Positions 2,088-35,726 are shown, counted from the stretch's first letter. The stretch: 64,000 nucleotides of DNA from an uncultured Cytophagia bacterium (GCA_964539665.1 CAZIKB010000020.1:526-64525), one strand, 5' to 3'. The notes: a model not told the origin generated them from the letters alone. A program made the numbers and translations.

Positions 2088-2092
2088 TTAAA

Positions 2093-2518: not shown

Positions 2519-2548
2519 ATTAGTCTTTGAACTAAAATTAGTTTAAAA

Positions 2549-2585: not shown

Positions 2586-2631
2586 ATATGGACTGTCTTT
2601 GTTCAAACACTTAATATGTTGTTGAATTATC

Positions 2632-8086: not shown

Positions 8087-8547
8087 TTTGGGAGCCCTTA
8101 TTTTTGTAAAATTATTATCTGCTAATTATTAAGTAATCCCTGAACAAGCAAAGGCAATGCCAGACTTTGGAACAATCCATTCATTCGTGGTAACCTATAC
8201 TTATAATTAACATGAAAACAAATAATTATCCCCTTAATAAATAAATTAAATTAGCAACAAATGTCGGATTTTTCAGCAGGGATGGATTTGCTGAAAGCAG
8301 CCAATGTTTGATGAATGTTGCCAATTGGCTGAAATGAGCAAAAACTCACACGGGAACTTGATCGTTCAGTATATTTATGCTGAACATGAGATATATCTGG
8401 ATATTTCATCCAGGATGAATATCCTGAACGATCAAAGTGTTCCACAGTACTAATGAGTAAATTATCGTAACAATACTATACCATTTGCTTCAGTAGCCGA
8501 ATGATAATAATAAAAAGCATATAATCACATCCACACCGTGTAAAAAA

Positions 8548-9819: not shown

Positions 9820-9994
9820 ACGTGTTCTCTTTAGCCACTTGCTATAACTTCCGTTAACCTTTGTTTATTTAATGGTTAAAAGAAAGTACACTGAGTACGG
9901 CATTAAATTTGCACAAGAAATCACACTTACAAATAATTTTAATTCATCCAACTAATTCAGTTGAACATTACTCATACAAACGGAGGAGCAAGTT

Positions 9995-12900
9995 ATGAGA
10001 AAAATTTCTTTAATTCTTCTTTTCAGTTGTTGTTTAATCTTGATTCCATATTTACTTTTGGCACAGGACGGAGCAACTATCTCTGGAAAAGTGACGGATG
10101 TGGAAGGCGAGCCATTACCTGGCGCCAATGTCCTAATCCAATTAACCAATCTGGGTGCGGCTACTGACATTAATGGCGACTACAGTTTCACCGTACCTGC
10201 CAGTGCGGTCAGAGGCCAGGAAGTAAAACTCGAAGCCAGATTTATTGGCTATCGCACTAAAGTTGAAAAAATCACGTTATCACCCGGAGTCAACATTGTG
10301 GAGTTCGCACTCCCTATCGATGCACTGGAAATGGATGCTATCGTTGTTACGGGCGTGGTTGAAGAAACCCCTAGAGTGAAATTGGCTTTTTCGGTTGGAA
10401 TTGTTAGTGCAGAAGCTCTTGAACAGGTAACGGCAATCTCTGCTGAATCCGCTCTGCGTGGTAAAGTAGCGGGTGTGAAGATTGTTAGAGGAAGTGGTAA
10501 ACCGGGAACCGACGCTTCGGTATTGTTAAGAGCTGCCACCAGCATTAATGCTAACGATCGATCCCAGGATCCACTTTATATTGTCGATGGCGTCATTATT
10601 GATCCTTCAGTTTCTGGCAGCCCGCTGTCTGACATCAACACCGAGGATATCGCGAATATAGAAGTGGTCAAAGGCGCAGCCGGGGCTTCGTTGTATGGAT
10701 CTCGTGCAGCAAATGGCGTGGTCAATATCACCACGAATCGAGGCAAAGGCCTGGCTTTGAATCAAACCAGAATCAGAGTCCGTAATGAATATGGCTTTAA
10801 TAAACTCCGTAAAGACTATCCTTTGAGGAAGTCCCACCATTACAGGATTCATGAAGGCACCGGCAACTATACCGACGAAAACGGTATAACGGTTACCTCC
10901 GGCGACTTTATTGATGGTAAGGGCAACTTTGTCGATCCGCGGCAATCAGGCAAACGTGTTCTGGACCGGTATACAGATAACTGGGATCCAGATAATCCGG
11001 ACGAACAAAATATATCTCAAATGGCTTTCGCCGATAAGCCCTATAAGTGGGTTGCCACAGGAGACATCGTTCTGGTCGATGACCCGAACGACGCGCGCTA
11101 TCTTCTTCCCAAATTAGGTTCAAGCGGTCAACCTGTGGGTTTACAACTCCTGCCGGGCGGCGAGCCTCTCAACCAAATACAGCAGTTTCACGAGCCCGGC
11201 ACCTTCATGCTGAATTCAGTGTCCCTTAGCAGGAACATGGAAAACACCAATTTCAGCATTGCTTTAAGCAATCGCCGAGAGGACGGTGTCATCGCCGGGC
11301 TGAAGGGCTATGAGCGACAAACCATGCGTATCGCTGTAGACCATGCGTTTCGAAAAAACCTTAGCATCTCCATCAGCGGGTTCTTTAGCAACGTAGAACG
11401 GGACGATATTGAAGTCGGCGTGGGTTCCCCCTTCTTCGGTATGGTGTTTACAAGCGGGGACGTCGATCTGGGTGCGAGACATGTGGAAGCAGGAACGAAA
11501 ACGGTTTATTACAATCCCACCACCGGATACCCGGAAGGCATACCTTTAGACGTAGGAGGCGAGCTTTTCATCGTACCGGATCCAACTTCAGAAAGACAAA
11601 ATGCTATCTACGCTCCCCAGGAGCAGCTCCGGAAACGAGAACAAACCCGGCTCATGGGCGGCGTTTCCCTGGACTATCGACCCGTTGACTGGTTCAAAGT
11701 AGGCGGTAACTTCAGCTATGATCGTTCAAACCGAGAGTACAATCGTTTCTATCATGTAGGTTACCAGACTGCGTATGAATCCGAACTTATCCTGGGTAGA
11801 TATATAAAATACCCTGCATGGGATGAAGCCATAAACGCTAACGTCACGGCTTCTTTCCAAAAATCTTTCCTAAGCAACGAGCTCACCATAAGGTCGAAAG
11901 TGAGAGCCCTGATCGAGAGGGCGGATTTACAAAATACTTATGCAGAAGGTACCGACCTTGCCGTCCGCGGTGTCCAGGATTTGAACGTTGCTAATAGTAA
12001 TATGTTAGACATCAATTCCAATGTACAGGCAGTGCGGTCAGAAGGTTATTCCTTAATCACCGGCCTCGACTATAAGGATAGATATATTGCAGATTTCCTG
12101 GTACGTCGGGATGGCAGTTCGTTGTTCGGTCCTGACGAAAGATGGAAAACCTACTATCGTGTAAGCGGCGCTTACCGTCTGTCCCAGGAATCGTGGTGGT
12201 TCACCGATCAAATACAGGAATTTAAGCTTCGCGGTTCTTTTGGCACAGCGGGCGGTCGTCCCAGCTTTCTTGCTCGCTATGAAACCTGGAGTGTATCGGA
12301 TGGCGCTGTTTCAAAAAACAGGCTCGGTAACAAGGCGCTGAAACCCGAGTATGCCAAAGAGCTGGAACTTGGCGTGGATATGGCTTTTATGGATAAGTTT
12401 TCGTTAGAGCTTACCTACGCTAAAAGCGAAGTTGAGGATCAATTGCTTGATGTGCCTTTAGTTTCCTACTTTGGTTATTCATCTCAGTGGCAAAACGCCG
12501 GCACTTTGTCAACAAATACCTTCGAGCTCAACTTGCAGGCTGCACTCATCCGCAAGAGAGACACGGCTTTGTCATTAGGCTTTATCCTCGACCGGACTCG
12601 TCAAAAAGTGACCAAATTAGATTTGGCTCCTTACAACTGGGCCCCTAATGATTCGCAAGGAGCGAGCGTATTTCGGATCCAGGAAGGATTAGCATACGGC
12701 GCGCTGTGGGGAAGCTCAAGTGTCATGAACAATGAGGAATTGTTCGAACAAATCGACAATGAGGCCGAATCTCAATTTCCTATCGATGAGTTTCAGCACA
12801 ACGACCGTGGTTTTTTGGTTTGGGTTGGTACTGGCAACACCTGGAGAGACGGTATCACTAAGAAATTGTGGGGTACCGAGACCGAGCTTCTTGTCGGTTT

Positions 12901-13501
12901 TGATGAAACAACCGGAGACTCTCTTTTTGAAAAATTTGAGTGGGGTATGCCCATTAATTGGGAAGATGAAGACGGCATAACCTCGAAACAGATAGGCAGC
13001 ACCATACCCGATTTCAACTGGAGCGCTTTTGCCAACTTTGAATGGAAAGGTTTTAGCGTTTATGGTCTGCTAGACTCACAAGTTGGCGGCGACCTTTACA
13101 GCCGGACAATCCAATGGGGCTACTCCGTAGAAATGAACCAGGCCGGAGCAGATATGACTGGGGTCGCTGATGCGCACAAAAAGCCCACGGTTTACTGGAA
13201 TCGAGAAAGCCAAACAGCCAATTTTATCTATGACGCCAGCTATATTAAACTGCGCGAGTTGTCGGTTAAATACAGCTTTAAGCAGGATCAGCTAAAAGGA
13301 ATTTTCGGCGGCCTGTTTAAGAAAGTCAGTGTGGGTATTATAGGTCGTAACTTGCTTACTTTTGACAACTATGATGAAGGTTACGATCCCGAGGTCGGCA
13401 CAACGGGCGATCAAGGCGGCTCGGCTGTGGTAACAAAAATTGATGCTTTTCGTTATCCGAACTTTAGAAGCTTCACCGGTATTCTTGAGTTCGAGCTTTA
13501 A
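9995..13501 (+). CDS. SusC/RagA-family TonB-dependent outer-membrane receptor (1168 aa)
   Basis: Signal peptide; carboxypeptidase-regulatory-like domain (ISGKVTDVEGEPLPGANV...DINGDYSF); TonB plug region (ALRGKVAGVKIV...LYIVDGV, NIEVVKGAAGASLYGSRAANGVVNITT); long beta-barrel. Confidence 0.9.
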   Translation: MRKISLILLFSCCLILIPYLLLAQDGATISGKVTDVEGEPLPGANVLIQLTNLGAATDINGDYSFTVPASAVRGQEVKLEARFIGYRTKVEKITLSPGVNIVEFALPIDALEMDAIVVTGVVEETPRVKLAFSVGIVSAEALEQVTAISAESALRGKVAGVKIVRGSGKPGTDASVLLRAATSINANDRSQDPLYIVDGVIIDPSVSGSPLSDINTEDIANIEVVKGAAGASLYGSRAANGVVNITTNRGKGLALNQTRIRVRNEYGFNKLRKDYPLRKSHHYRIHEGTGNYTDENGITVTSGDFIDGKGNFVDPRQSGKRVLDRYTDNWDPDNPDEQNISQMAFADKPYKWVATGDIVLVDDPNDARYLLPKLGSSGQPVGLQLLPGGEPLNQIQQFHEPGTFMLNSVSLSRNMENTNFSIALSNRREDGVIAGLKGYERQTMRIAVDHAFRKNLSISISGFFSNVERDDIEVGVGSPFFGMVFTSGDVDLGARHVEAGTKTVYYNPTTGYPEGIPLDVGGELFIVPDPTSERQNAIYAPQEQLRKREQTRLMGGVSLDYRPVDWFKVGGNFSYDRSNREYNRFYHVGYQTAYESELILGRYIKYPAWDEAINANVTASFQKSFLSNELTIRSKVRALIERADLQNTYAEGTDLAVRGVQDLNVANSNMLDINSNVQAVRSEGYSLITGLDYKDRYIADFLVRRDGSSLFGPDERWKTYYRVSGAYRLSQESWWFTDQIQEFKLRGSFGTAGGRPSFLARYETWSVSDGAVSKNRLGNKALKPEYAKELELGVDMAFMDKFSLELTYAKSEVEDQLLDVPLVSYFGYSSQWQNAGTLSTNTFELNLQAALIRKRDTALSLGFILDRTRQKVTKLDLAPYNWAPNDSQGASVFRIQEGLAYGALWGSSSVMNNEELFEQIDNEAESQFPIDEFQHNDRGFLVWVGTGNTWRDGITKKLWGTETELLVGFDETTGDSLFEKFEWGMPINWEDEDGITSKQIGSTIPDFNWSAFANFEWKGFSVYGLLDSQVGGDLYSRTIQWGYSVEMNQAGADMTGVADAHKKPTVYWNRESQTANFIYDASYIKLRELSVKYSFKQDQLKGIFGGLFKKVSVGIIGRNLLTFDNYDEGYDPEVGTTGDQGGSAVVTKIDAFRYPNFRSFTGILEFEL

Positions 13502-13587
13502 AAGAAACAGTCTAATTCTATGATTGTGCGGGCCTTTGTTTTGGCCCTCACAATCCTGAATTTCAACTACCAAAATATGGAGGAAAT

Positions 13588-15180
13588 ATGAATAAGTTAT
13601 TAAAAAGCAGTCTGGCCGTTTTGCTCATTGTAGCTGCGGCGTTATTAGGCTGTCAGAATATGGATGTAGATAACCTGAACCAACCGGATGAGGCTCGCGC
13701 TCTCGCCACACCAAGCGACATCGAGTCCTTGATCCAGGGTTCGTTTTTAGGCTGGCATGATGGAATTTGTAACGGAACGCCTAATATGTCTTTGGCAGTA
13801 ATGTCGGATACCTATACTTGCTCCTGGGGTAACTACAGTATGGCCGCCTTATCTGAGGAGCCGCGGACTGAGTTCCAAAATAAAACAGACGCTGGCGAGT
13901 CCAGCGTGGCCAGAATGCCCTGGTTCGATCTATATGGGGCTATCTCCGCTGCCGCTGACGGCATACGAGCTATTGAGGCCGGTACAGTGACTTTGGGCGA
14001 AGACAACCAACGCGCTATCGCATTTGGAAAATTTGTGCAAGGAATATCACACGGCTGGCATGCGTGCATGTTTGACCAGGGCTTCATTCTGGATGAAGAC
14101 GTAGATCTCGCCTCCGGGACTTTGGATTTTTTCCCTTACACCGAGGTTTTGGCCGCGGGAATAGCACAATTAGAGGAGTGCATCCAGATTTGCAATGCCA
14201 ACGACTTCACCCTGCCAATTGACTGGATCAACGGGTATGTGCACACCAGCGCTCAGTTAGCGCAGGTTGCCCATTCTTTTATCGCGGTCTTTATGGCTTC
14301 GGTGGCGCGTTCACCAGCAGAACGACAGGCTGTCGACTGGAACACGGTTCTGAGCCATATAGACCAGGGGATTACTGAGGAGTGGGGACCCGATGGTAAT
14401 GGCGGTGGTCGTGGTGATCCGTGGTGGCACGCGGTACAATGGTATTCAGCCGAATCAAATACCTGGAACCGCGTCGACTATAAACTGATCGGTTATACGG
14501 ATCCAGGTACGCAATTCAGTGACTGGCTTGCCTTAGCTCCCCCGGATCGGGATGAATTCATCTTTGAATCAAGCGACTTGCGTATCTGGGACGGAACCTA
14601 TGCTTCTACTGGCGACCAAAATCCCGGCAGCCAATTCAAACAGGTCTCTGAAACTCCCTACCATCGTTCCGGTCAACCTTATCATAAGACACGCTATTCG
14701 CATTATATTTATGATGAATACCGCTACGAAACTTCGGCAGGAAGTCAAGCACCGTTGCTTCGCCCAAGACAGATGGATTTAATGAAAGCTGAGGCTTACT
14801 TACATCTTGGCAGAGCAGCTGAAGCGCCGGCTCTTATAGATAAAACCCACGTTGTCAATGGCGGCTACCCCTCTTCGGCAAGCGCGCCTGTGGGGAGTAT
14901 AACTGATGGTCTCGATTATATCAAGCCTGGCGTCAGTCTTTGGTCCATTTTACAATACGAAAAGCACATTGAGTGTTTAGGCACGCTTCCCGGACTGGAA
15001 TACTTTGACAGGAGGGGCTTTGGTACCCTCCTCAGCCTGACCTTGCTGCATTTTCCAGTTCCAGCATTGGATTTGGAAACCCTGCAGTTGGGTCTTTACT
15101 CACACGGCGGTGGCGTAGGGAATTCAGCTCCAAAACGGATTCACAATGCTGACGATGATAAACTAAGGCCTGGAAATTAA
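13588..15180 (+). CDS. SusD/RagB-like nutrient-binding outer-membrane lipoprotein (530 aa)
   Basis: Lipoprotein signal (LLGCQN) and its position immediately downstream of the SusC-like gene. N-terminal region resembles SusD-like starts. Confidence 0.7.
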   Translation: MNKLLKSSLAVLLIVAAALLGCQNMDVDNLNQPDEARALATPSDIESLIQGSFLGWHDGICNGTPNMSLAVMSDTYTCSWGNYSMAALSEEPRTEFQNKTDAGESSVARMPWFDLYGAISAAADGIRAIEAGTVTLGEDNQRAIAFGKFVQGISHGWHACMFDQGFILDEDVDLASGTLDFFPYTEVLAAGIAQLEECIQICNANDFTLPIDWINGYVHTSAQLAQVAHSFIAVFMASVARSPAERQAVDWNTVLSHIDQGITEEWGPDGNGGGRGDPWWHAVQWYSAESNTWNRVDYKLIGYTDPGTQFSDWLALAPPDRDEFIFESSDLRIWDGTYASTGDQNPGSQFKQVSETPYHRSGQPYHKTRYSHYIYDEYRYETSAGSQAPLLRPRQMDLMKAEAYLHLGRAAEAPALIDKTHVVNGGYPSSASAPVGSITDGLDYIKPGVSLWSILQYEKHIECLGTLPGLEYFDRRGFGTLLSLTLLHFPVPALDLETLQLGLYSHGGGVGNSAPKRIHNADDDKLRPGN

Positions 15181-15214
15181 CTGACCAGATTTATCGTTAG
15201 TTCGTATTTTTCAG

Positions 15215-15245
15215 AAAGGCCATCATATATTTATGATGGCCTTTT
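15215..15245 (+). terminator. rho-independent terminator after the SusD-like gene
   Basis: aaaggccatcata-tatt-tatgatggccttt hairpin followed by a T-rich tract. Confidence 0.6.
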
Positions 15246-15349
15246 CATATTAATCTTGATTGTTAAAGTATCTTTGTTAAATAGTGATTGTCATTCCAGC
15301 GATCTTTTGTGCAGGCCTGTCCCTGTCCCGAACTCGTTTCGCATTGGCG

Positions 15350-15605
15350 TCAACCTAAGGTACAGTCCCCCTTAGCAAAGGGGGATTTAGGGGGTTGTAT
15401 TTAATCTTTATAACGAAATTGTTAATAATTTGTGTAATCGTAGCTTAACAGTAAACCTGAGTAAATGAATTACTATTTTATATTAGGCTTTTACAACCCC
15501 CTGTGTCCCCCTTTTTTAAGGGGGAATTGTAAAATATTGCTTAAGTTGACGCTAATGCAAACTTGTTTCGGGGAATCTCCTCTTTTCAGGCAGGAGATTC
15601 CTACT
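15350..15605. repeat. cluster of hairpins: two copies of TCCCCCTT-N4/6-AAGGGGGA, an outer GGGGTTGTA...TACAACCCC inverted repeat, and GGAATCTCCT-N10-AGGAGATTCC
   Basis: Inverted repeats read directly from the sequence in a 730-bp intergenic region. Confidence 0.5.
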
Positions 15606-15754
15606 AAAAATATGCAGGAATAACAAGAAAGGGCTGTTTTCAGTCAATCACTAAATAAGCAGCCTTGTAATAATTCGTGGGAATAAACAACGTAAATAAA
15701 CAGTTTAAATAACAGTGTTACACCGTTATCCAGTTTACTCAGCATTTGGCTAAG

Positions 15755-15875
15755 ATTGTCATTCTGAGCGACTGGAAGGAGCGAAGAATCTCATGCCATC
15801 AAGCTTGGGAAAAAGAATAAAGGATAGTGGTCATAGATTCTTCACTCGCTCTGCTCGTTCAGAATGACATTTTTC
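15755..15875. repeat. MITE/REP-like element: ~40-bp imperfect terminal inverted repeats (tgtcattctgagcga...gcgaagaatct / agattcttcactcgc...tcagaatgaca) flanking ~40 bp
   Basis: Read from the sequence. The GTCATTCTGAGCG...GCGAAGAATC motif resembles REP-like repeats. Confidence 0.45.
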
Positions 15876-15913
15876 AGAGTTGAGTGGATAACCGCTAACA
15901 GTAGGAAAATACA

Positions 15914-16393
15914 ATGGTTAAATCAATATTATTTCGATGCGTACTTTTATTTTTTCTAATGTTTTACATCGGTTGCGCCGGCTCCGGTTCGGGAACAAAC
16001 GACACGGGTAGAAGAAGCTACCATACTCAAATAGGCACGACCTATTACAATGAATTTTTTGGGGTTTCGCGAATGGTTCTTGTTAACAAATACCAGTACA
16101 ACGTAGTTCGCTCCGAAGAAAGTACGATGGAGATTTACTTCGAAACGGCATGGAAAGACCGGCCGGTATTTGCGGATGAAGCTGCGATGCAAATAACAGC
16201 GGCTCAAACCAAATTTATTGTTAGGGCAAAACCTCGCGCTACAGGCCGATTTAACATTCATTTGTATGCGGAAAATCAGGTTCGTTATATGGGTAGTACT
16301 CGATGGGAACCAGCTCTGATAAGTGATATGCTTAAGAACTACTTAGATGAAATTTCCGGTGAGTTACGATATGAGTTTAAACAGCTTTATTAA
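15914..16393 (+). CDS. hypothetical lipoprotein (159 aa)
   Basis: Signal peptide with lipobox FYIGCAG. It sits 13 bp upstream of the first CRTAC1-like gene. Confidence 0.55.
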   Translation: MVKSILFRCVLLFFLMFYIGCAGSGSGTNDTGRRSYHTQIGTTYYNEFFGVSRMVLVNKYQYNVVRSEESTMEIYFETAWKDRPVFADEAAMQITAAQTKFIVRAKPRATGRFNIHLYAENQVRYMGSTRWEPALISDMLKNYLDEISGELRYEFKQLY

Positions 16394-16405
16394 CCGATAT
16401 GGAAT

Positions 16406-19400
16406 ATGAAAAAGGTTGCTCTCGTCACATTTTTTATACTGGTCGTTTTAGGTGCCATCTTTTTCTGGCCTCAAAAAACAATTTCATGGCATGAGGAAAA
16501 CGGATTCAGATGGGCAGAATTCTCCATTTCTTGGTTTGGCAGCCACGGCTTCAAGCAGCTTTCTGAGTCTGAAACAGGAATCACCTTTTCCAACAATCTG
16601 ACCAGGGAACAAATTACCAGCAATCGGCACCTTCTTAATGGTTCCGGTGTTGCAGCCGGCGATGTCGATGCTGATGGATTGACTGACGTTTATTTTTGCC
16701 GGCTTAATGGTTCAAATATTCTGTACAAAAATCTTGGAAACTGGAAATTTGAAGATATCACTGCCGCTGCGGGAGTTGCGTGCCCGGAGCAATTCTCCAC
16801 CAGCGCTGTGCTTGCTGACATTGACGGAGATAGAGATCTTGATCTTCTGGTCATGACGTTGGGAGGCTCTAATTCTTGTTTTGTAAATGATGGTACAGGA
16901 AAATTTACAGATATCACGAAATCGACCGAACTTAAGTCAAATACAGGCGCTACTACAATGGCCCTTGCCGATATAGATGGCGATGGCGATCTTGACCTGT
17001 ATATAGCCAATTACAAAAAAAGTACTGTTAAAGATCAATTCTTACCGCACGATATAAGATTCGAACGTATTGTAAAGAAAGTTGGCAAAAGCTATGAAGT
17101 TGTGCCGGAGTTTCAAAAACATTATACTGTTAAGAATTTTAATGATAACATTCTTATGCGGTATGAATACGCGGAACCTGATATGCTTTATCTCAATGAT
17201 GGCAGAGGACATTTCAAAATGGTTTCTTTTACAGAGGGAAGATTCTTGAATGAAGCAGGAAAACCTGTGTCCGAGCCGAAAGACTGGGGACTGACCGTCC
17301 GATTCCAGGATATCGATGCAGACGGCGACCCGGATATTTACGTATGCAATGATTTTGAAAGTCCGGACCGAATCTGGATGAATGATGGTACCGGTAATTT
17401 TAAGGCGATCCCCAAACTGATGATTCGTAATACGAGCTGGGCGACTATGGCGATAGACTTTTCAGATATTGATCGTGACGGTGACCTGGATTTTTTGCTA
17501 TTAGATATGCTCAGTAGAAATCATCAGCAACGTAAAACTCAAACGTTAAGTATGGCGCCAGCGCCATTTGCCATTGGTGAAATTAGTAACCGTCCCCAGA
17601 ATTCGCGTAATACCCTTTTCGTGAACCGGGGGGATATGACCTATGCGGAAATTGCCCAGTTCAGCGGCGTTCAGGCCTCGGGATGGTCCTGGTCACCCAG
17701 ATTTCTTGATGTTGATCTTGACGGTTATGAAGACATCCTTATTTTAACCGGACACTTTTATGACGCCCTGGACTCGGATACCCTGGCTCGTATTAAAGCC
17801 ATGAGTTATCGAAATTTAGAAACATGGCGCAGTAAAATCTATAAGTTTCCGAGTCTTAAAACTCCAAATACTGCCTTTCGCAATCGGGGTGATTTAACCT
17901 TTGAGGACGTGGGGGAAGAGTGGGGATTCGCTTCGACAGATATCAGCCATGGTTTGGCAACAGGAGATTTTGATAACGACGGAGACCTGGATATTGTCAG
18001 CAACCGACTCGATGCTCCTGCGGGAGTGTACCGCAATGAATCAACTGCCCCGCGTCTTGCAGTCCGCTTACGTGGTCTTCCGCCAAACACCCAGGGAATT
18101 GGTGCAAAAATACAGGTGTTAGGTGGTCCGGTACCTCAAAGTAAAGAAGTCATTTGTGGGGGTACTTATCTTTCAAGTTCTGATCCTTTATATGTTTTTG
18201 CAGCAGGAAAAGTGAAAGATAACCTGCTCATTAAAGTAAAATGGCGTAATGGTCAGAGTAGTGTTATCGAAAATGTTAAAACCAACCGAATCTATGAAAT
18301 TTATGAAACTGGCGCTAATACAAATGACCATGCCCAACCGATCCCTGACTCTACTTCTAAACCATATTTTGAGGATGTTAGCTATTTAATCAAACATGTT
18401 CACCACGAGGACAAATATGATGATTTTCGAGTTCAACCTTTACTGCCAAAGAGATTAAGTCAGTTAGGCCCCGGAATCGCCTGGTACGATCTCGATGATG
18501 ATGGCGATGATGATTTAGTCATCGCCAGTGGCAAGGGGGGTACATTGGCCTGCTTTCGAAATAATGGCCAGGCTGGATTTCACCAAATTCAAGATCCCCT
18601 GTTGAATCCAAAAGCACAATACGATCAAACCACTGTGTTAGGCTGGACACCGGAAGATGGAGTAAGTTCCCTGTTAGTGGGGTGCTCCAATCTTGAAAAC
18701 TCCAGGCCAGGTGACTCATTTGTTCTGCGTTATGATTTTAAGCATGGCCTTGCCAGGACGAGCAAACAAATTGTGGGAGACATATCCAGTACCGGGCCTA
18801 TGTCAATGGCAGATTATGATGGCGATGGAGACCTGGATTTGTTCGTCGGCGGCCGCAGCATACCGGCGCGATATCCAGAACCAGCGTCATCAAAACTATA
18901 TTACAACGAGGACGGTGTTCTCAAACTTGATTCACTTAACAGTGTACAATTTAAAGAGCTTGGTTTAGTATCGGGAGCGGTATTTAGTGATTTTGATGGG
19001 GATGGTGATGCGGATCTTATACTGGCTGTCGAATGGGGGCCGGTGACGGTCTTTCGTAATGAAGATGGCGCTTTCGCCAATGCCACAACGGAGTTAGGCT
19101 TAGGTGAATATCAAGGCTGGTGGAGTGGTGTGACCACCGGTGACCTGAATGAGGATGGCAAACTCGATATCATCGCAACCAATTGGGGATTGAATAGTAA
19201 ATATCAAAATCGATATAATTATGAACACCCGTTGGAAATTTTCTACAGTGATTTTGATAATAACGGAACTGTTGATATGGTTGAAGCGTTCTTTGATAAT
19301 GACATGCAAAAATTGGTTCCAGAGCGCGGACTGCTTGGGATGTTAAAAGGAATGCCAAACATTCGCATACGTATGCCAAGCCACAATAAATACAGTAAAG

Positions 19401-20125
19401 CTAGTGTTCAGGAGATTATTGGGCCGAAGCTTTTACAAGCCGGAAACCTCAAAGCCAATACGCTCGCACACACTATCTTTTTAAATCGAGGCGAGCGATT
19501 CGAGGCTGTTGAAATGCCAGCAGAAGCACAGTTTTCAACGGCGTTTTATGTTGGCGTAGCTGATATTGATGGGGATGGTCACGAGGATGTTTTCATGAGT
19601 CAGAACTTTTTTGCTTTGCAGGTTGAGACGTCTCGGTCAGATGCAGGCAGGGGTCTTTGGTTAAAAGGAAATGGCAGTGGCAGCTTGACGCCAATTAGCG
19701 GGCAAGAATCCGGCATTGAGGTCTATGGGGAGCAGCGAGGAGCGGCGCTTGGCGATTATGACCGAGATGGCCGGGTTGATCTGGCTGTCTCCCAAAATGG
19801 CGCTTCAACAAAGCTCTATCATAATGTGGGCGCAAAACCGGGTTTGCGCATTCGACTTGCTGGCCCAAAAGGAAATCCCTTTGCTGTCGGAGCAACAATT
19901 CGGTTAGTCTATAAGGATGGTTATGGTCCTGCACGCGAGGTGCATTCAGGTTCCGGATACTGGTCGCAGGACTCCATGGTGCAAGTGATGGGATTTCGGG
20001 ATAATGCGAAAGGAGTCTGGGTACGCTGGCCTGGTGGAAAGATTACAAATGTCACGCTTCCTGAAGAAACAACCGATATAACAGTTGACTTTGAAGGCAG
20101 TTTAAAAGTCAATACTATAAAGTAA
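16406..20125 (+). CDS. CRTAC1-family secreted protein, double module (FG-GAP/VCBS repeats + ASPIC/UnbV, twice), 1239 aa, paralog 1
   Basis: Many Dx(D/N)GDGxxD calcium-binding FG-GAP motifs. Two ASPIC/UnbV segments (RLRGLPPNTQGIGAKIQVLGGPVPQSKEVICGGTYLSSSDP mid-protein and GLRIRLAGPKGNPFAVGATIRLVYKDGYGPAREVHSGSGYWSQDS at the C-terminus). Confidence 0.85.
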   Translation: MKKVALVTFFILVVLGAIFFWPQKTISWHEENGFRWAEFSISWFGSHGFKQLSESETGITFSNNLTREQITSNRHLLNGSGVAAGDVDADGLTDVYFCRLNGSNILYKNLGNWKFEDITAAAGVACPEQFSTSAVLADIDGDRDLDLLVMTLGGSNSCFVNDGTGKFTDITKSTELKSNTGATTMALADIDGDGDLDLYIANYKKSTVKDQFLPHDIRFERIVKKVGKSYEVVPEFQKHYTVKNFNDNILMRYEYAEPDMLYLNDGRGHFKMVSFTEGRFLNEAGKPVSEPKDWGLTVRFQDIDADGDPDIYVCNDFESPDRIWMNDGTGNFKAIPKLMIRNTSWATMAIDFSDIDRDGDLDFLLLDMLSRNHQQRKTQTLSMAPAPFAIGEISNRPQNSRNTLFVNRGDMTYAEIAQFSGVQASGWSWSPRFLDVDLDGYEDILILTGHFYDALDSDTLARIKAMSYRNLETWRSKIYKFPSLKTPNTAFRNRGDLTFEDVGEEWGFASTDISHGLATGDFDNDGDLDIVSNRLDAPAGVYRNESTAPRLAVRLRGLPPNTQGIGAKIQVLGGPVPQSKEVICGGTYLSSSDPLYVFAAGKVKDNLLIKVKWRNGQSSVIENVKTNRIYEIYETGANTNDHAQPIPDSTSKPYFEDVSYLIKHVHHEDKYDDFRVQPLLPKRLSQLGPGIAWYDLDDDGDDDLVIASGKGGTLACFRNNGQAGFHQIQDPLLNPKAQYDQTTVLGWTPEDGVSSLLVGCSNLENSRPGDSFVLRYDFKHGLARTSKQIVGDISSTGPMSMADYDGDGDLDLFVGGRSIPARYPEPASSKLYYNEDGVLKLDSLNSVQFKELGLVSGAVFSDFDGDGDADLILAVEWGPVTVFRNEDGAFANATTELGLGEYQGWWSGVTTGDLNEDGKLDIIATNWGLNSKYQNRYNYEHPLEIFYSDFDNNGTVDMVEAFFDNDMQKLVPERGLLGMLKGMPNIRIRMPSHNKYSKASVQEIIGPKLLQAGNLKANTLAHTIFLNRGERFEAVEMPAEAQFSTAFYVGVADIDGDGHEDVFMSQNFFALQVETSRSDAGRGLWLKGNGSGSLTPISGQESGIEVYGEQRGAALGDYDRDGRVDLAVSQNGASTKLYHNVGAKPGLRIRLAGPKGNPFAVGATIRLVYKDGYGPAREVHSGSGYWSQDSMVQVMGFRDNAKGVWVRWPGGKITNVTLPEETTDITVDFEGSLKVNTIK

Positions 20126-20164
20126 TATAAAAAATAGTAATAAAAGAAATAAGGAGATATAAAC

Positions 20165-20558
20165 ATGAAAAGTAACCTTTCCGTACAAATTTCAAGATTG
20201 CTGATTATAGGTCTCGCCCTATTGCTGTTGTCCACATTCATTTCCTGCATGGATGATCTTGTTGCACCTAGACTCGATCAGGAGGACAAGGATAAAAATA
20301 AAGACGACGAAGAGCCGGACATAGAGCCGGATCCACCTGCCATGAGCAGCCAAAGATTAAGATTGTCTGCATTTTTGGTATAGGTTCAAACCGATAATAA
20401 ATCCTGAGAAGTCTATCAAATGGTATGAGGAAGCCGGATATTTTTGGGCCGAGCTTCCTCAGTCTAAATCAGTACAGACAGACTTTACACTATTGTCAAA
20501 TTTACAAACATCACTCAAATTTTCTAAAAGTATGGCAGTAGGTTCAACTGAGGCTTAA
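20165..20558 (+). pseudogene. degraded remnant of a fourth CRTAC1-like paralog (lipoprotein signal + acidic linker, frameshift, conserved N-terminal block, premature stop)
   Basis: ORF 20165-20383 has a strong SD (aaggagat) and encodes a signal peptide with Cys plus a D/E-rich linker. In another frame (20361-20558) the sequence reads ...SIKWYEEAGYFWAELPQ..., matching ISWHEENGFRWAEFS, LKWNDEEGYKWAELS and SIKWHEEPEYRWAELP of paralogs 1-3, and then terminates. Confidence 0.5.
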
Positions 20559-20590
20559 AACTCCTCGATCAGAAACCGATCGGAGACAGA

Positions 20591-23500: not shown

Positions 23501-24352
23501 GAAGCTTACTTTGACAGTGAGACGCAAAGACTGGTCCCTGAGCGTAGTCGTATTTGGATGCTCCGAGCTATGCCTAATATCATGATGTGGATGTTTGACA
23601 ATAATAAGTATAGCCGCTCGAGTGTTCATGAGGTCATCGGTTCTAAACTTAAGAAAGCTGGCAAGTTACAGGCAAATAAACTTGCGCATACGGTATTCTT
23701 TAATCGTGGTGACCGATTTGAAGCAGTTGAAATGCCTCGGGAGGCACAATTTTCACCGGCGTTCTATGTTGGTGTAGCGGACTTTGATGGTGACGGGCAT
23801 GACGATGTTTTCATGAGTCAGAATTTTTTTGCTTTGCAGGTTGAGACACCTCGCTCTGATGCAGGTCGGGGGCTTTGGTTGAAAGGCGACGGCAGAGGCA
23901 ATTTGGCAGCGATACCAGGACAGGAGTCAGGTATTAAGGTGTACGGTGAGCAGCGCGGTGCCGGGCTGAGTGATTATGACCGCGATGGTCGGGTTGATCT
24001 GGTTGTATCCCAGAATGCTGCATCGACAAAACTCTATCACAATGTGGGTGCAAAACCAGGTATACGCATTCGATTATCTGGACCTGAAGCCAATCCATTT
24101 GCAGTTGGAGCAACAATTCGGTTAGGTTATGAAGATGGGTATGGTCCTGCTCGCGAGGTTCAGTCAGGTTCCGGATACTGGTCGCAAAATTCGATGGTGC
24201 AGGTCATGGGAGTTCGGGATAAAGTGAAGGGAGTCTGGGTGCGCTGGCCTGGTGGTCATGTGACCGAATCAGAACTCCCTGATGATACTCATGAAATCAC
24301 CATTAACCTGAATGGAGACATTAAAGAACCGCGGGAGTCACAAGTAAACTAA
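20591..24352 (+). CDS. CRTAC1-family double-module protein, paralog 2 (1253 aa, lipoprotein signal LTQSC)
   Basis: Same architecture as 16406-20125, with ~70-80% local nucleotide identity in conserved blocks. Confidence 0.85.
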   Translation: MIKKISLTSRLVLALFILTQSCATDNTLKWNDEEGYKWAELSVPYFGGTGFKQLSESETGITFTNNLTKHQLDSNQVILNGSGVAVGDVDGDGLADLYFCRLNGSNVLYKNLGNWKFEDVTDFAGVGCPKQFSTGTAFADLDGDADLDLLVTAIGGPNACFLNDGTGKFTDVTDAAGISSQTGASTMALADIDGDDDLDLYIANYKRIRAKDIFLPGELTFESLVEQIGDSYRIAAKYQEHYILDLAGGWILWFETGEPDMLFLNDGKGRFAKVSFTDGRFLNEDGEPVSELKDWGLTARFQDIDDDGDPDIYVCNDFESPDRIWINDGKGYFQAIPKLAIRNTSNSAMAVDFSDIDRDGDLDFLVTDMLSLHHRFRMTQKPTMVPLPHAIGAIDNRPQHMRNTLFLNRGDKTYAEIAQYSGVQASDWSWSPLFMDVDLDGYEDILIATGHYYDALDYDTIRKAKKREKFDVMMPNNPEVRSDTDKLNTIFLYPRLALPNIAFRNRGDLTFEEVGKKWGFTSVDISHGMALGDLDNDGDLDVVMNRLEDTAAIYTNESAAARIAVRLRGLPPNTQGIGAKIQVLGGPVPQSKEVICAGAYLSSSDATYAFAASDAKSLTIEVKWRNGNISTINDAKPNRIYQIYEPEIHLADNSEASSDSNPQPFFEDVSHLIKHKHHEDTFDDFKGQPLLPKRISQLGPGVSWNDLDGDGDDDLVIGSGKGGQLACFKNDGEAGFRQIKNPVFTAKTQFEQTTVLGFTNEDGSTSLLVGSSNYENPDTNDSFVSRYDFNRNQAITTAQISGDKSSIGPMSMADYDGDGDLDLFVGGRSLPAHYPEPASSRLYSNDGGNFVLDSLNTEQFEKLGLVSGAVFSDFDGDGDPDIILAVEWGPVMVFRNIGGRFSDATQELGLSGYNGWWQGVTTGDLNEDGKLDIIVTNWGLNSKYQHRYDDEHPLQIFYSDFDNNGTLDIVEAYFDSETQRLVPERSRIWMLRAMPNIMMWMFDNNKYSRSSVHEVIGSKLKKAGKLQANKLAHTVFFNRGDRFEAVEMPREAQFSPAFYVGVADFDGDGHDDVFMSQNFFALQVETPRSDAGRGLWLKGDGRGNLAAIPGQESGIKVYGEQRGAGLSDYDRDGRVDLVVSQNAASTKLYHNVGAKPGIRIRLSGPEANPFAVGATIRLGYEDGYGPAREVQSGSGYWSQNSMVQVMGVRDKVKGVWVRWPGGHVTESELPDDTHEITINLNGDIKEPRESQVN

Positions 24353-24968
24353 TCGTCAATTGAAAAGAAGAAACCTGGCGTGGAGCGAGGCAGTAAATTC
24401 TTATGACGTTTTTCTTCTCGCAGTTTTCGTAGTGCTGTAATTAAGACAGTTTAGTCTTTCTATTATCAATAAGGAGAGTTGAAGTATGACCTGATGACGA
24501 TTCCCGAAGCTGGTTTCATCGTCATTGGGCTATTACTTAAAAATAAAATTCACTCTACGTTTCGGCCGTTAAAGTAGAAGTGACAAATAAATTTGCGCTA
24601 TATTTGAATTGCGTCGCCCTCCTCAACATGTGTACTGGATTTCTATGATGTAAAGTACTGCTAAACAAATCCACCGGATAAGATTTTGCTCAAGTTCAAA
24701 TTCAGTCCCACCGGAATCTGGATTCGGGAGTAGAATTTCCAGGGCCTCCCACAGCACGCCAACTGACGAGCCCTATTGATCTAAGCAATTCCAACATCTA
24801 TGTGAAACGTTTTAGCTTCATTTTACGGGACCTAATAGCAGATAATTATGATTATTAATCTTGATTTTTAAAGCATTTATTGTTATTTTTAATTTAAATT
24901 TGGAACTGCAATGTGTTTTGGATTTGTAAATCAAAGTGTGATATTTCTGGAGTTAGAGTATCTAATCT

Positions 24969-27900
24969 ATGATTAAAGGCAACAATAAGAATATTATTAT
25001 AAAGACCGGTTTTATAGCGAGCGTCCTGATAGCGGCTTATCTGGTAATTCAATATTGGCCCGGACATTCCATCAAATGGCACGAAGAACCTGAATACCGC
25101 TGGGCAGAACTTCCTTCTCCTGAGTTTGGTAAACCTGGCTTTGAATTATTGCCGACTTCAGAAACGGGAATCACTTTTACTAACAGTCTGACGCCGGATC
25201 AAATCGGAGACAATCAGTTTCTGCTGGGCGGCTCTGGTGTGGCCACCGGCGACATTGACGGCGATGGGCTGACAGATGTATATTTTAGCTGTCTTGACGG
25301 CTCGAATGTCCTGTATAAGAATTTAGGCAATTGGAAGTTCAGAGATATAACCAGGCAAGCGGGGGTCGCGTGCTCCAATCGTTTTTCAACTGGGACTACG
25401 TTTGCGGACATTGACGGTGATTATGATCTGGATCTATTAGTTACATCTCTGGGTGGGGCCAACGCATGCTTCCTAAACGATGGTTCCGGAAATTTTACCG
25501 AAGTTACCGATTCGGCAGGCCTCAAATCGAACAACGGAAGCACTTCAATGGCGCTGGCTGATATTGATGGAGATGGTGACCTTGACCTTTACATGACAAA
25601 TTTTAAGAAGACGTCTGTCGAAAACATTTATTCTCCTCGTGAAAGAGAACACGGTCGTGTTGCCAGGAAGGTTGGCAGCACCTACGAGATCCTGCCTCAG
25701 TTTAAAGAACATTATAGAATTGAGATGATTTGTGACCAGCCCTTTCTATATGAAAATGCTGAGCCCGATTTTCTATATTTAAATGATGGCAAAGGGCATT
25801 TCAATCTGGCTTCCTTCACCGATGGCCGATTTCTCGATGAAGAGGGGAATCCTGTATCGGAGCAAAAAGATTGGGGACTAATGCCCAGATTGCAGGACAT
25901 GGACAATGACGGAGATCCGGATATTTATGTTTGTAATGACTACTGGAGCCCTGATCGAATCTGGATGAACGATGGCACAGGGCATTTCCAGGCTATAAGT
26001 AAGACTGCAATTCGCCACACCAGCAAGTTTACCATGGCAATGGATTTTTCTGACATCGACAGGGATGGAGACCTTGATTTTTTTCTTATAGATATGTTAG
26101 CTCAGGATCATCCACGGCGTATGCAGCAGATGGGTACTAACACAGCATTGCCAACTGCAATTGGGCAATTCGACAACAGGCCGCAGATAAAGCGCAATAC
26201 TCTGTTCTTAAATCGCGGCGATCGTACATATGCCGAGATTGCTCATTTTAGCGGTGTGCACGCTACTGAGTGGACATGGTCTGTCCGGTTTTTTGATGTT
26301 GATCTTGATGGATATGAAGATATAATTGCGACAAACGGCCAGACGCATGACTTTGAGGACACCGATACCAACGATCGCGTTCAAAGGCTCTCAGTGTATG
26401 GATATGATCGTCGCAAGCTCACATCATTATTTCCCAGTTACCTGACATCTAACATAGCTTTTCGAAATAACGGAGATTTGACCTTTGAAAATGTTAGTGC
26501 GGAATGGGGATTTACCGTACCTGATATGTCCTGGGGTATGGCGTTCGCGGATTTTGATAATGATGGAGATTTGGATATTGCCACGAACAGACTCGATGCA
26601 TCAGCAGGCATTTACCGCAATGAAACAGCCGCTCCACGGATTGCTGTGCGCCTGAAAGGACTTCCAGCAAATACTCAGGGTATTGGTGCAAAAATTCGAG
26701 TTTTGGGCGGACCCGTACCACAGGATAAAGAACTTATTTGCGGTGGAACCTATCTTTCTGGTTCAGATCCAATGGTCACCTTTGCTGCGGATACTACTGA
26801 AAATAGTCTAACGATAGAAGTCGTTTGGCGAAGCGGAAAAATTAGTCGAATAAATAATGTAATACCAAATCGAATCTATGAAATATTTGAGACAGATACC
26901 GGGACAGAAATTCTTTCAAAGTCTGATTCCTCAGTTACAACGAACCATTTCTTTGAGGATGTAAGTTACCTTATCAATCATAAGCACCACGAGGACGTTT
27001 TTGATGACTTTAAACGACAACCCTTGTTACCAAATCGACTAAGCCAGGCAGGTCCGGGTTTAGCCTGGCACGATATCGACGGCGATGGTTATGACGATTT
27101 ATTTATTGCCAGCGGAAAAGGTGGACAACTCGCCTGTTATCTCAATAACAGGAAGCAAGGATTTTCTCGAATGCAGGGCGGGTCTTTAGCTGAAAATTTA
27201 AAATTTGAACAAGGCTCCATAGTAGGTTGGGCAAAACAAGATGGTTCAGCATCCATTTTAGTTGGTTGTTCAAATTATGAGAATTTACCAACCGGTAATG
27301 CTTTTGTTATGCGCTACGATTTTAAGAATGGGGCTGTTGAGAAATCAAATTCAATATCAGGAGACACATCCAGTACAGGCCCAATTTGCGTAGCCGATTA
27401 CGACGGAGATGGAGATTTGGATTTATTTGTGGGCGGGCGAACTATACCAGGTTACTATCCCCAGCCAGCGTCTTCAAGATTGTATAGAAATGAAAAAGGC
27501 ACATTCAGGATTGATAAAACTAATTCAGAACAATTCAAAAAAATGGGGATGGTTTCGGGGGCGGTTTTTAGTGACATCGATGGAGATGGGGATCCAGATC
27601 TGATACTGGCTGTGGAATGGGGCACTGTGATGGTTTTTCGTAACAACAATGGAAATTTTACCGATGCCACAAATGCTCTGGGATTAGATGAATATAAAGG
27701 CAGGTGGAATGGAGTGACCACCGGTGATCTAAATGAAGATGGCAAGCTGGATATTATCGCGACAAATTGGGGAGTTAATAACGAACACACCGCCAGTAAT
27801 GAAAATCCATTACGAATCTATTATGACGATTTCGACGGCAATGGTACCCTGGACATTATTGAAGCACACTTTGACCAGGATGTGAACAAACTTGTTCCGG

Positions 27901-28685
27901 AACGTGGACTGAATCCATTGTCCCAGGCAATCCCCTATATCCGTTCCCGAACGCCAACTTACAAACAATTTGGCGAAGCTGGTGTTGAGGAAATCATTGG
28001 GAAATCTTTGACTCAAATACCAGGGCTATTTGCCACTACACTGGAGCATTTGATTTTTTTAAATCGTGATAATGGATTTGAAGCTGTTGCATTTCCTGTT
28101 GAGGCACAATTTGCACCGGCCTTTTATGCGGGAGTCGCCGACTTTGACGGCGATGGTCATGATGATGTGTTTATCAGTCAAAATTTCTTTGCTACTCATT
28201 TGATGAAGCCACGCTCAGACGCCGGCCGTGGTCTATGGCTGAAAGGCGATGGTACTGGTAATTTGCAACCAGTTCCTGGTCAAAAGTCTGGTGTCAACAT
28301 CTATGGCGATCAACGCGGTGCAGCCTTAGGCGATTATGATTGCGACGGCCGTGTGGATCTGGTCGTTTCACAAAACGGCAACGCAACTGTGCTTTACAGA
28401 AACGTTGGCGCGAAAAAAGGCCTGCGTATTCGATTAGCAGGTCCAAAGGGTAATCCGGCAGGAGTTGGTGCAACCATCCGAATACATTATGAGGACAGGT
28501 ATGGTCCGGCTCGTGAAGTTCATTCAGGATCAGGATACTGGTCTCAGGACTCTTTAGTACAAATCATGGGAGTACAGGATAATCCGAAGGGCGTTTGGGT
28601 GCGTTGGCCGGGGGGGGAAATTAGCAATGTAGATATTCCTGAAGGAGCATCTGAGCTTACTATAAATTTCAATAGTAAAAAATGA
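24969..28685 (+). CDS. CRTAC1-family double-module protein, paralog 3 (1238 aa)
   Basis: Same architecture: FG-GAP motifs, two ASPIC/UnbV segments and the conserved N-terminal SIKWHEEPEYRWAELP block. Confidence 0.85.
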   Translation: MIKGNNKNIIIKTGFIASVLIAAYLVIQYWPGHSIKWHEEPEYRWAELPSPEFGKPGFELLPTSETGITFTNSLTPDQIGDNQFLLGGSGVATGDIDGDGLTDVYFSCLDGSNVLYKNLGNWKFRDITRQAGVACSNRFSTGTTFADIDGDYDLDLLVTSLGGANACFLNDGSGNFTEVTDSAGLKSNNGSTSMALADIDGDGDLDLYMTNFKKTSVENIYSPREREHGRVARKVGSTYEILPQFKEHYRIEMICDQPFLYENAEPDFLYLNDGKGHFNLASFTDGRFLDEEGNPVSEQKDWGLMPRLQDMDNDGDPDIYVCNDYWSPDRIWMNDGTGHFQAISKTAIRHTSKFTMAMDFSDIDRDGDLDFFLIDMLAQDHPRRMQQMGTNTALPTAIGQFDNRPQIKRNTLFLNRGDRTYAEIAHFSGVHATEWTWSVRFFDVDLDGYEDIIATNGQTHDFEDTDTNDRVQRLSVYGYDRRKLTSLFPSYLTSNIAFRNNGDLTFENVSAEWGFTVPDMSWGMAFADFDNDGDLDIATNRLDASAGIYRNETAAPRIAVRLKGLPANTQGIGAKIRVLGGPVPQDKELICGGTYLSGSDPMVTFAADTTENSLTIEVVWRSGKISRINNVIPNRIYEIFETDTGTEILSKSDSSVTTNHFFEDVSYLINHKHHEDVFDDFKRQPLLPNRLSQAGPGLAWHDIDGDGYDDLFIASGKGGQLACYLNNRKQGFSRMQGGSLAENLKFEQGSIVGWAKQDGSASILVGCSNYENLPTGNAFVMRYDFKNGAVEKSNSISGDTSSTGPICVADYDGDGDLDLFVGGRTIPGYYPQPASSRLYRNEKGTFRIDKTNSEQFKKMGMVSGAVFSDIDGDGDPDLILAVEWGTVMVFRNNNGNFTDATNALGLDEYKGRWNGVTTGDLNEDGKLDIIATNWGVNNEHTASNENPLRIYYDDFDGNGTLDIIEAHFDQDVNKLVPERGLNPLSQAIPYIRSRTPTYKQFGEAGVEEIIGKSLTQIPGLFATTLEHLIFLNRDNGFEAVAFPVEAQFAPAFYAGVADFDGDGHDDVFISQNFFATHLMKPRSDAGRGLWLKGDGTGNLQPVPGQKSGVNIYGDQRGAALGDYDCDGRVDLVVSQNGNATVLYRNVGAKKGLRIRLAGPKGNPAGVGATIRIHYEDRYGPAREVHSGSGYWSQDSLVQIMGVQDNPKGVWVRWPGGEISNVDIPEGASELTINFNSKK

Positions 28686-30947: not shown

Positions 30948-30951
30948 GCTC

Positions 30952-32760: not shown

Positions 32761-32813
32761 AAATGAAATTTAATTTGAGCGGCCTTTTGAATAATTAGTC
32801 CCGAATTATAATT

Positions 32814-35619: not shown

Positions 35620-35726
35620 GGGATTGGAGAAAATGACATTCTCATATATTTTTTATATTCACATACTAATAAAATTAACAGAAAAATCAATTACGTAATT
35701 TATATATCCAGCCCCCTTAATTGACT

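Follow-up and report, generated by a model that had tools for sequence, protein, structure and literature searches.

A SusC/SusD-like pair followed by three large paralogs

We analysed a stretch of 64,000 nucleotides from an uncultured Cytophagia bacterium (GCA_964539665.1, CAZIKB010000020.1:526-64525), referred to as the window throughout, with respect to a putative uptake locus at 9995-28685. Here a gene for a SusC/RagA-type TonB-dependent receptor is followed on the plus strand by a gene for a SusD-like lipoprotein, a gene for a lipoprotein of 159 aa and three paralogous genes whose products comprise 1238-1253 aa (Table 1). This order had been proposed in a reading made from the nucleotide sequence alone (the sequence-only reading), and every open reading frame (ORF) that it had placed there is present. 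The best matches of the window proteins come from KSB1/Calditrichota-like lineages, which would place the organism there and not within Bacteroidota.

The sequence-only reading had likened the layout to that of a polysaccharide utilization locus (PUL) in which double propellers of the CRTAC1 family occupy the position of the carbohydrate-active enzymes (CAZymes), and it had noticed neither a glycoside hydrolase (GH) nor a lyase or an esterase. Our domain searches agree with both points. With Pfam and NCBIfam no GH, polysaccharide lyase or other lyase, carbohydrate esterase or other esterase, or carbohydrate-binding module (CBM) was found in any ORF between 7.4 and 43 kb. The locus is thus led by a SusC/SusD pair as in a canonical PUL, while the co-located CAZyme genes are absent according to the Pfam domains of the same interval.

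The product of the first gene belongs to the SusC/RagA class according to a curated model: it scores 467.8 bits against TIGR04056 (cutoff 368.25), covering aa 28-1166, and carries an N-terminal CarbopepD_reg_2 domain (PF13715) and a plug (PF07715). The plug signature TIGR04057 is reached with 42.8 bits, slightly under its cutoff of 46.2. Only 86 bp separate this gene from the SusD-like gene, and a SusC gene lies upstream of the SusD-like gene in all 68 of the 68 related metagenome loci.

Table 1. Coordinates of the features of the locus and of its neighbourhood, counted from the first letter of the window
Feature	Position	Strand	Basis or remark
Possible sigma-54 -24/-12 element CGGCAT-N5-TTGCA	9898-9913	+	Pattern match, 82 nt upstream of susC
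SusC/RagA-type TonB-dependent transporter, 1168 aa	9995-13501	+	TIGR04056, CarbopepD_reg_2, Plug
SusD-like lipoprotein, 530 aa	13588-15180	+	Predicted fold, family profile, lipobox, synteny
Hairpin AAAGGCCATCAT-ATATTT-ATGATGGCCTTT, 12-bp stem	15217-15247	+	3' of susD, within the 733-bp intergenic gap
Lipoprotein, 159 aa	15914-16393	+	Lipobox FYIGC; third partner of the SusC/SusD-like pair
CRTAC1-like double-module protein A, 1239 aa	16406-20125	+	FG-GAP_3 (11 stretches), UnbV_ASPIC x2
A, N-module, ~aa 1-640	16406-18325	+	
A, C-module, ~aa 641-1239	18326-20125	+	
Acidic lipoprotein ORF, 72 aa	20165-20383	+	Between paralogs A and B; read from sequence
Relic of a propeller gene 5' end, ~50 codons (translated ...KWYEEAGYFWAELPQ...)	20400-20558	+	Compared with the N-termini of A, B and C
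CRTAC1-like double-module protein B, 1253 aa	20591-24352	+	Lipoprotein signal LTQSC
CRTAC1-like double-module protein C, 1238 aa	24969-28685	+	No lipobox Cys
Membrane cytochrome, cytochrome b-like N-terminal transmembrane region and 4 CXXCH	28857-30947	+	Cytochrome_C554 and MtrC-like Pfam matches
Single-module CRTAC1-like protein S1, 602 aa	30952-32760	+	Starts 4 bp after the cytochrome gene
TPR protein, 290 aa	32814-33686	+	Fused to an ASPIC domain in L176
PAS histidine kinase and sigma-54-dependent response regulator	33763-37151	+	Candidate regulators by adjacency only

A divergent SusD-like lipoprotein

The sequence-only reading had tied its naming of the second gene product as SusD-like to the outcome of profile searches, and taken literally this outcome goes against the name: the 530-aa lipoprotein matches none of the four Pfam SusD models (PF07980, PF14322, PF12771, PF12741), no NCBIfam model and no PDB sequence, and up to an E value of 10 the domain-library searches yielded only a trace of TPR_4. 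The predicted fold and the family profile nevertheless lead to SusD. An AlphaFold2 (AF2) model of the protein was obtained with a predicted local distance difference test score (pLDDT) of 90.1 and a predicted template modelling score (pTM) of 0.89. When this model was compared to the PDB using Foldseek, the top 50 matches were all SusD/RagB proteins (E 1e-8 to 5e-5, probability 1.00), with query-normalised TM-scores of 0.41-0.58 at an identity of 10-15%; levan SusD, RagB and ButD were among them. Likewise a profile built from the family matches 8 SusD chains of the PDB, the best with E 2.7e-5. The protein furthermore starts with a lipoprotein signal (MNKLLKSSLAVLLIVAAALLGC, lipobox LLGC) whose Cys22 is conserved in at least 90% of the family. 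Since both fold and family profile match SusD chains, we regard the product of 13588-15180 as a genuine, very divergent SusD, a designation that is based on modelled fold, lipoprotein signal and synteny and not on a sequence model. By analogy it would serve as the ligand-binding lid on SusC.

A word-indexed search with this protein returned 46 relatives, none with a Pfam domain. In an HMM search of 1.84 billion cluster representatives (50% clustering) we found 2,068 members at E <=1e-3 and 724 at 1e-30. Judged by these searches the family is sizeable, and those members that were checked are missed by current domain libraries. Some of the representatives (P0288, P0292, P0323, P0382, P0401) reach a length of 1,090-2,634 aa, and their SusD-like part is located internally or at the C-terminus; these could be SusC-SusD fusions or mergers of gene calls.

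Three double-module paralogs of the CRTAC1 family

A, B and C are members of the ASPIC/UnbV/CRTAC1 family. Each contains 9-11 FG-GAP_3 stretches (PF13517, E ~1e-80) and two UnbV_ASPIC domains (PF07593), which bears out the earlier proposal that every paralog is an internal duplication of one unit made of FG-GAP repeats and ASPIC/UnbV. Between the paralogs the N-modules are 58-65% and the C-modules 61-73% identical. N- and C-modules share only 22-25%, so that the internal duplication is, as far as these identities can be read, much older than the recent triplication. The Ca-loop motif Dx[DN]x[DN]Gxx[DE] occurs 12-13 times per protein (13 times in A).

For residues 41-1239 of A an AF2 model with a pLDDT of 89.9 and a pTM of 0.89 was obtained. 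Its best match in the PDB is murine CRTAC1 (9etn_A; E 6e-22, target-normalised TM-score 0.67, 17% identity over ~645 alignment columns), followed by the multi-propeller scaffolds DDB1 and SF3B3; no lyase or hydrolase appears among the top 50 PDB matches. CRTAC1 is also found by sequence (E 3e-19), and the Pfam matches of the propellers include no EGF-like domain. Outside the Ca loops many residues are invariant, among them M308, M328, W387, W389 and N1027, and H626 is conserved in at least 90%; Q1002 belongs to the same group (model numbering).

The N-termini of the paralogs differ. Most propeller orthologs, including most of those from Bacteroidota, begin with a lipoprotein signal. At the position where B and orthologs such as the first gene of locus L004 have the Cys for the lipid anchor, A and C have a Trp (Trp-Pro), and the N-terminus of A is a hydrophobic anchor or signal devoid of a lipobox Cys. 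Within the tandem array some copies (B) are therefore probably lipid-anchored and others (A, C) are not.

The propeller family is large: at least 7,377 homologs were found (matches at E <=1e-10 among 8,000 scored candidates). Their database names are VCBS repeat-containing, FG-GAP-like repeat-containing, CRTAC1 family and enediyne biosynthesis protein E4. Full-length double-module homologs with 53-73% identity occur in KSB1, Caldithrix, Marinimicrobia, Gemmatimonadota, Acidobacteriota, Verrucomicrobia and Thermodesulfobacteriota, those of the last three groups at 53-56%.

Linkage of SusC/SusD genes and double propellers in other genomes

The sequence-only reading had proposed a survey of how often SusC/D pairs precede ASPIC genes in related genomes. 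We approached this from both sides of the locus, and in either case the linkage recurs. A first survey, based on the SusD-like protein, included 78 metagenome loci. In the closest clade (53-58% identity of the SusD-like protein; L096-L106) every locus that reaches far enough downstream continues into propeller genes, among them ten with 53-56% identity. Apart from these, L004, L005 and L007, in which the SusD-like protein is 42-55% identical, have kept SusC, the SusD-like gene and one to three double propellers. In Caldithrix (L095) SusC, a SusD-like gene (40%), a small lipoprotein gene and a double propeller (64%) are followed by Peptidase_S8 and M14 genes, and the same four-gene order of SusC, SusD-like, small lipoprotein and double propeller is found in a metagenome-assembled genome of the Rhodothermales (L015). 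A marine clade with 35-37% identity has kept the triad together with a convergently oriented single-module propeller (7 loci) and an M14 peptidase of ~850 aa; an amidohydrolase and an M20 peptidase are encoded nearby. More distant members from Gemmatimonadota and others have kept only SusC, and there the pair is located beside peptidases and amidohydrolases.

A second scan started from the propellers. Using one genome per species, our own ORF calls and phmmer, we obtained 80 loci with full-length double-module homologs, from Bacteroidota (~30% identity), Verrucomicrobiota (41-48%), Rhodothermales, Ignavibacteriae and Planctomycetes. In 32 of the 46 Bacteroidota loci with at least 5.5 kb of upstream DNA the propeller run is preceded by a SusC gene at a distance of no more than 4 genes, as opposed to none of the 8 loci from the Planctomycetes-Verrucomicrobia-Chlamydiae (PVC) group. 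Of the 30 Bacteroidota genes located between SusC and the propellers, 28 are recognised by one or more of the canonical Pfam SusD models, and several SusD subfamilies are represented. By a stricter count the SusC-led loci contain one double propeller in 17 cases, two in 8 and three in 7. The Bacteroidota loci with three copies, seven or eight in all, closely resemble the window, and in most of them the first copy is followed by an unrelated lipoprotein of ~200 aa. A flavobacterial genome contains 39 SusD genes among 4766 proteins (PMC5064120), so that adjacency by chance is expected in a few percent of the cases and not in 70%.

Taken together, these comparisons of gene order strongly support a linkage of SusCD and propellers that is conserved across several phyla, and with it the functional link suggested by the sequence-only reading. 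The locus in the window is one instance of a widespread locus type and is not peculiar to one genome.

Small lipoproteins and intergenic sequences

The 159-aa lipoprotein has no match in Pfam or NCBIfam, and its profile finds nothing significant in the PDB. In 42 of 63 related metagenome loci a homolog is encoded behind the SusD-like gene, and one is also present in Caldithrix L095 (E 3e-12) and in Rhodothermales L015. We considered whether its family is the same as that of the ~200-aa lipoprotein located between the propellers in Bacteroidota; this was rejected, as hhalign matched the signal peptide only, with a probability of 45%. The 72-aa ORF between A and B has counterparts at the same position in L004, L005 and L006, where they are called as genes. 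By tblastn it is 46% identical to that of L004 (E 1e-9) and also matches L104. The adjoining remnant of a propeller gene start is probably the scar of a tandem duplication, judging from its similarity to the paralogs' N-termini.

According to the sequence-only reading the SusC/SusD pair feeds directly into the propeller genes. This holds insofar as the propellers are located downstream on the same strand. It does not hold for the immediate succession, as a gap of 733 bp with a strong hairpin follows susD. The hairpin is a possible terminator; it was not called in a terminator scan because its T-run is short. The gap (15181-15913) contains further G/C-rich palindromes, among them CCCCCTTAGCAAAGGGGG near 15368 and CCCCCTTTTTTAAGGGGG near 15506, as well as the inverted pair GTCATTCTGAGCG...CGTTCAGAATGAC at ~15758-15867.

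The sigma-54-like element upstream of susC is a weak candidate for a promoter. The window contains 38 matches to the pattern, close to the 32.6 that chance would give, and an element of this kind lies upstream of susC in only 3 of 58 related loci. Next to the locus, a minus-strand block at 1-8086 encodes a sigma-54 activator, an FHA/zinc-ribbon protein, a TPR protein, a STAND-type AAA_16+TPR protein and a protein of 204 aa. The latter has no Pfam match, and a good sigma-54-like element (8147-8162) is located ahead of its gene.

Neighbouring genes and functional companions

We scanned 82 co-directional genes flanking the SusC-positive propeller loci of Bacteroidota. PAP2 (10 genes) was the only frequent family, followed by GH43 (4), ECF sigma/FecR (3-4), AraC (3), CBM9 (2) and GH92 (1); less frequent but recurrent are LacI regulators, transporters of the SSF and MFS_2 types, GMC oxidoreductases and thioredoxin-like proteins with DUF255. 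A DUF255 gene is also located ahead of the propeller gene in a genome from Marinimicrobia. The PAP2 protein is a clear homolog of the characterised vanadium iodoperoxidase of Zobellia galactanivorans (matches to 4CIT/4USZ, E 5.6e-116). Homologs of this vanadium haloperoxidase are present in 17 double-propeller loci (e.g. L032 13543-14856, L074 13161-14558), downstream of the propeller genes wherever the position was checked; a locus from Flavobacterium, for example, has the order SusC, SusD, two propellers and vanadium haloperoxidase. A vanadium haloperoxidase in such a genomic context did not turn up in our literature search.

Relatives of the SusD-like family adjoin genes for Peptidase_M14, M20, M55, S8 and S9 and for amidohydrolases; no peptidase gene is adjacent to the locus in the window. 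In the lineage of the window the recurrent partners are peptidases or c-type cytochromes. Read by their family assignments, the flanks thus point variously to oxidative chemistry, to sugars in some loci and to peptides in the SusD-like family of the window. With few GHs and such mixed companions, this is not the picture of a classical glycan-degrading PUL.

Downstream of paralog C a membrane cytochrome, the single-module protein S1 and a TPR protein form a unit (28857-33686) which is conserved according to genome comparison. Homologs of the cytochrome with 67-80% identity occur in KSB1, Calditrichota, Marinimicrobia and Gemmatimonadota under the names 'cytochrome b/b6 domain-containing' or 'multiheme c-type cytochrome', and in Gemmatimonadota L176 (8001-12697) the gene behind this cytochrome encodes a fusion of ASPIC and TPR. 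The unit would be connected with the SusCD-propeller locus by adjacency only. A c554-like gene is located between the SusD-like gene and the double propeller in L007. We do not claim homology between this gene and the cytochrome of the window, the similarity being at the level of the haem motifs only.

In addition to the three paralogs the window contains four further ASPIC genes (30952-32760, 41547-43190, 52389-54053 on the minus strand, and 54400-57993), one of which includes an N-terminal TPR region as a fusion, so that its 64 kb contain 7 ASPIC genes and 10 propeller modules in total. Among themselves the single modules share 29-41% identity, and with the double modules ~25%. One single-module protein, S2, is encoded within a plus-strand cluster at 39508-50016, together with an HZS_alpha-domain protein (1 CXXCH), a 10-CXXCH protein in which two c554 domains and a beta-propeller are combined with cytochrome c at the C-terminus, a Reg_prop protein and two proteins of the Peripla_BP_6 type. 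This arrangement matches a described 'clade I' cluster of hydrazine synthase homologs with an intervening CRTAC1-family gene (PMC12758564). Downstream of the two substrate-binding proteins an asparagine-synthase-like gene overlaps with a weak radical-SAM-like gene (50098-52366, plus strand).

Possible functions of the locus

A mechanism that would connect these genes can be outlined as follows. The SusC barrel, the divergent SusD-like lid and the small companion lipoprotein would constitute an outer-membrane import system, which would be genetically coupled to Ca2+-binding double propellers in place of glycan-binding proteins and CAZymes. The propellers would reside in the cell envelope, B being lipid-anchored and A and C signal-anchored or secreted, where they would capture a polymeric or Ca2+-associated substrate in the manner of lectin-like VCBS/FG-GAP propellers, or modify it. 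The SusD-like lid would then pass the substrate to SusC for import powered by TonB. Such a substrate would be outside the range of known glycoside hydrolases and may be proteinaceous or otherwise non-glycan. We give about an even chance to the reading that the genes represent a conserved SusCD locus type without CAZymes whose CRTAC1-like propellers bind or process the imported substrate outside the cytoplasm. As such it is a variation on the SusCD/PUL theme and not a new kind of system, and it is apparently uncharacterised. The localisation of the propellers, their cooperation with SusCD, the choice between binding and catalysis and the substrate are what we infer.

Several observations weigh against this reading. 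Adjacency is the sole link between SusCD and the propellers, and because of the long gap and the hairpin after susD the two groups of genes may be separate transcripts. An ASPIC gene is located within 4 genes of the SusD-like gene in only 15 of 42 metagenome loci, a double propeller in only 6 of 37, and distant SusD-like relatives keep SusC and the small lipoprotein without double propellers. Conversely, in the neighbourhoods checked from Acidobacteriota (L093) and from the PVC group (eight loci) no SusC was found near the propellers, and there the function of the propellers does therefore not need SusCD. A and C do not have lipid anchors. Finally, the propellers are conserved to a degree that is unusual among surface binding proteins, a point rather in favour of catalysis.

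This last point leads to the first alternative, namely that the double propellers represent a hitherto unrecognised class of enzymes, for instance a Ca2+-dependent lyase, hydrolase or oxidative enzyme built on a beta-propeller fold, and that the locus is an ordinary PUL with an enzyme family for which there is no model yet. Identities of 53-73% from KSB1 to Acidobacteriota and Verrucomicrobia, the many invariant residues outside the Ca loops, the occurrence of propellers without SusCD and the sugar-type companions in some Bacteroidota loci (LacI, SSF, MFS_2, GMC oxidoreductase, GH43, CBM9) would all be in line with catalysis. However, the structural matches of A are headed by CRTAC1, DDB1 and SF3B3 and not by any lyase or hydrolase, Pfam gives no CAZyme match, and no catalytic site was identified (this was assessed without model coordinates). 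We consider the enzyme explanation doubtful, though worth keeping in mind.

According to a second alternative the triad of SusC, SusD-like protein and small lipoprotein is a RagAB-like importer of peptides or amides, and the propellers are mere neighbours. The peptidase and amidohydrolase genes beside SusD-like relatives fit such an importer, as do RagB and RagAB chains among the fold matches and the interruption after susD. Moreover, with 7 ASPIC genes and 10 modules in the window, adjacency by chance is easier here than elsewhere. Against mere neighbourhood stands the recurrence of the gene order in independent lineages and with unrelated canonical SusD families, as seen in 32 of 46 Bacteroidota loci, as well as the finding that each sufficiently long locus of the closest SusD-like clade runs into propeller genes. 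Taken as a replacement for a joint function this explanation is unlikely; the Caldithrix locus has both a propeller and peptidases, so that import of peptides and a role of the propellers can coexist.

It is very unlikely that the double propellers are partners of redox proteins in a locus dedicated to a redox-active or metal-associated compound instead of a nutrient polymer: the cytochrome b/4-haem c gene and S1 directly behind paralog C, the conserved cytochrome and ASPIC(+TPR) unit with its fused form in Gemmatimonadota, the c554-like gene within the L007 locus, S2 between the hydrazine-synthase-like haem proteins (PMC12758564) and the iodoperoxidase homolog as the most frequent flank family of Bacteroidota (10 of 82 genes) speak for it, but the propellers linked to haem proteins have a single module and share only ~25% identity with the double ones, the propellers have no haem or other redox motifs, and a cytochrome is missing from L004, L005 and the majority of the Bacteroidota loci.

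Returning to the reading in which the propellers bind or process what SusCD imports, a broader claim can be put forward tentatively: SusCD plus double propellers would be a widespread, undescribed type of utilization locus across phyla of the Fibrobacterota-Chlorobiota-Bacteroidota (FCB) group (Bacteroidota, Rhodothermota, Calditrichota, KSB1-like), with the propellers as dedicated capture or catalytic component for substrates that a CAZyme-based PUL prediction misses. If true, this would offer a first clue to the function of the ASPIC/UnbV/CRTAC1 family, to which the enediyne 'E4' proteins and vertebrate CRTAC1 also belong. The prediction of PULs relies on SusC/D genes together with CAZymes, so that loci of the present type are invisible to it or left as 'unknown'. 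If the propellers indeed handle the substrate, a common uptake route for an abundant environmental substrate has been overlooked, the large 'dark' SusD family needs a model, and the ASPIC/UnbV/CRTAC1 family with its more than 7,000 close matches gains a testable function. Cultured carriers are available in Algoriphagus, Dyadobacter endophyticus, Marinoscillum furvescens DSM 4134, Roseivirga, Flavobacterium and Caldithrix.

Comparison with known systems

The locus resembles PULs of the Sus paradigm such as the levan utilisome (BT1762-1763; 8AA0/6ZLU) in its SusC barrel, its lipoprotein with predicted SusD fold and its co-directional genes for envelope proteins. It differs from them in that no GH, lyase, esterase or known surface glycan-binding domain was detected and in that its SusD is missed by all four Pfam SusD models. 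Furthermore, in place of an adjacent hybrid two-component system or ECF/anti-sigma pair it has a histidine kinase and a sigma-54-dependent response regulator. In the full-text literature we found no link of ASPIC/UnbV/CRTAC1 proteins to SusC/D, PULs or TonB receptors, a search from which subscription journals were largely outside, so that an earlier mention is possible.

RagAB of Porphyromonas gingivalis (6SLN/6SLI) and BfUbb-ButCD (8YPT) likewise consist of a SusCD pair and lack CAZymes. Our SusD-like protein matches RagB and ButD by its fold, and peptidases are encoded beside relatives of its family. In contrast to the locus described here, those systems have no CRTAC1-like partners, whereas the window has no adjacent peptidase.

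Vertebrate CRTAC1 carries a C-terminal EGF-like Ca-binding domain. Each module of the window proteins corresponds to it (9ETN) in combining a Ca2+-binding FG-GAP propeller with UnbV/ASPIC. The window proteins differ in being tandem double proteins with 17% identity to CRTAC1, in which no EGF-like domain was detected and which start with bacterial signal or lipoprotein leaders.

The only bacterial context of a CRTAC1-family gene that we found in the literature is the hydrazine-synthase-like cluster (PMC12758564), of which the window itself contains an example at 39508-50016 with an alpha homolog, a 10-haem beta-gamma homolog and two substrate-binding proteins. That cluster differs from the SusCD-propeller locus by its single-module propeller and the lack of SusCD. 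Both have a CRTAC1-family gene as part of an envelope system, and CRTAC1-like genes thus recur as accessory genes in such systems.

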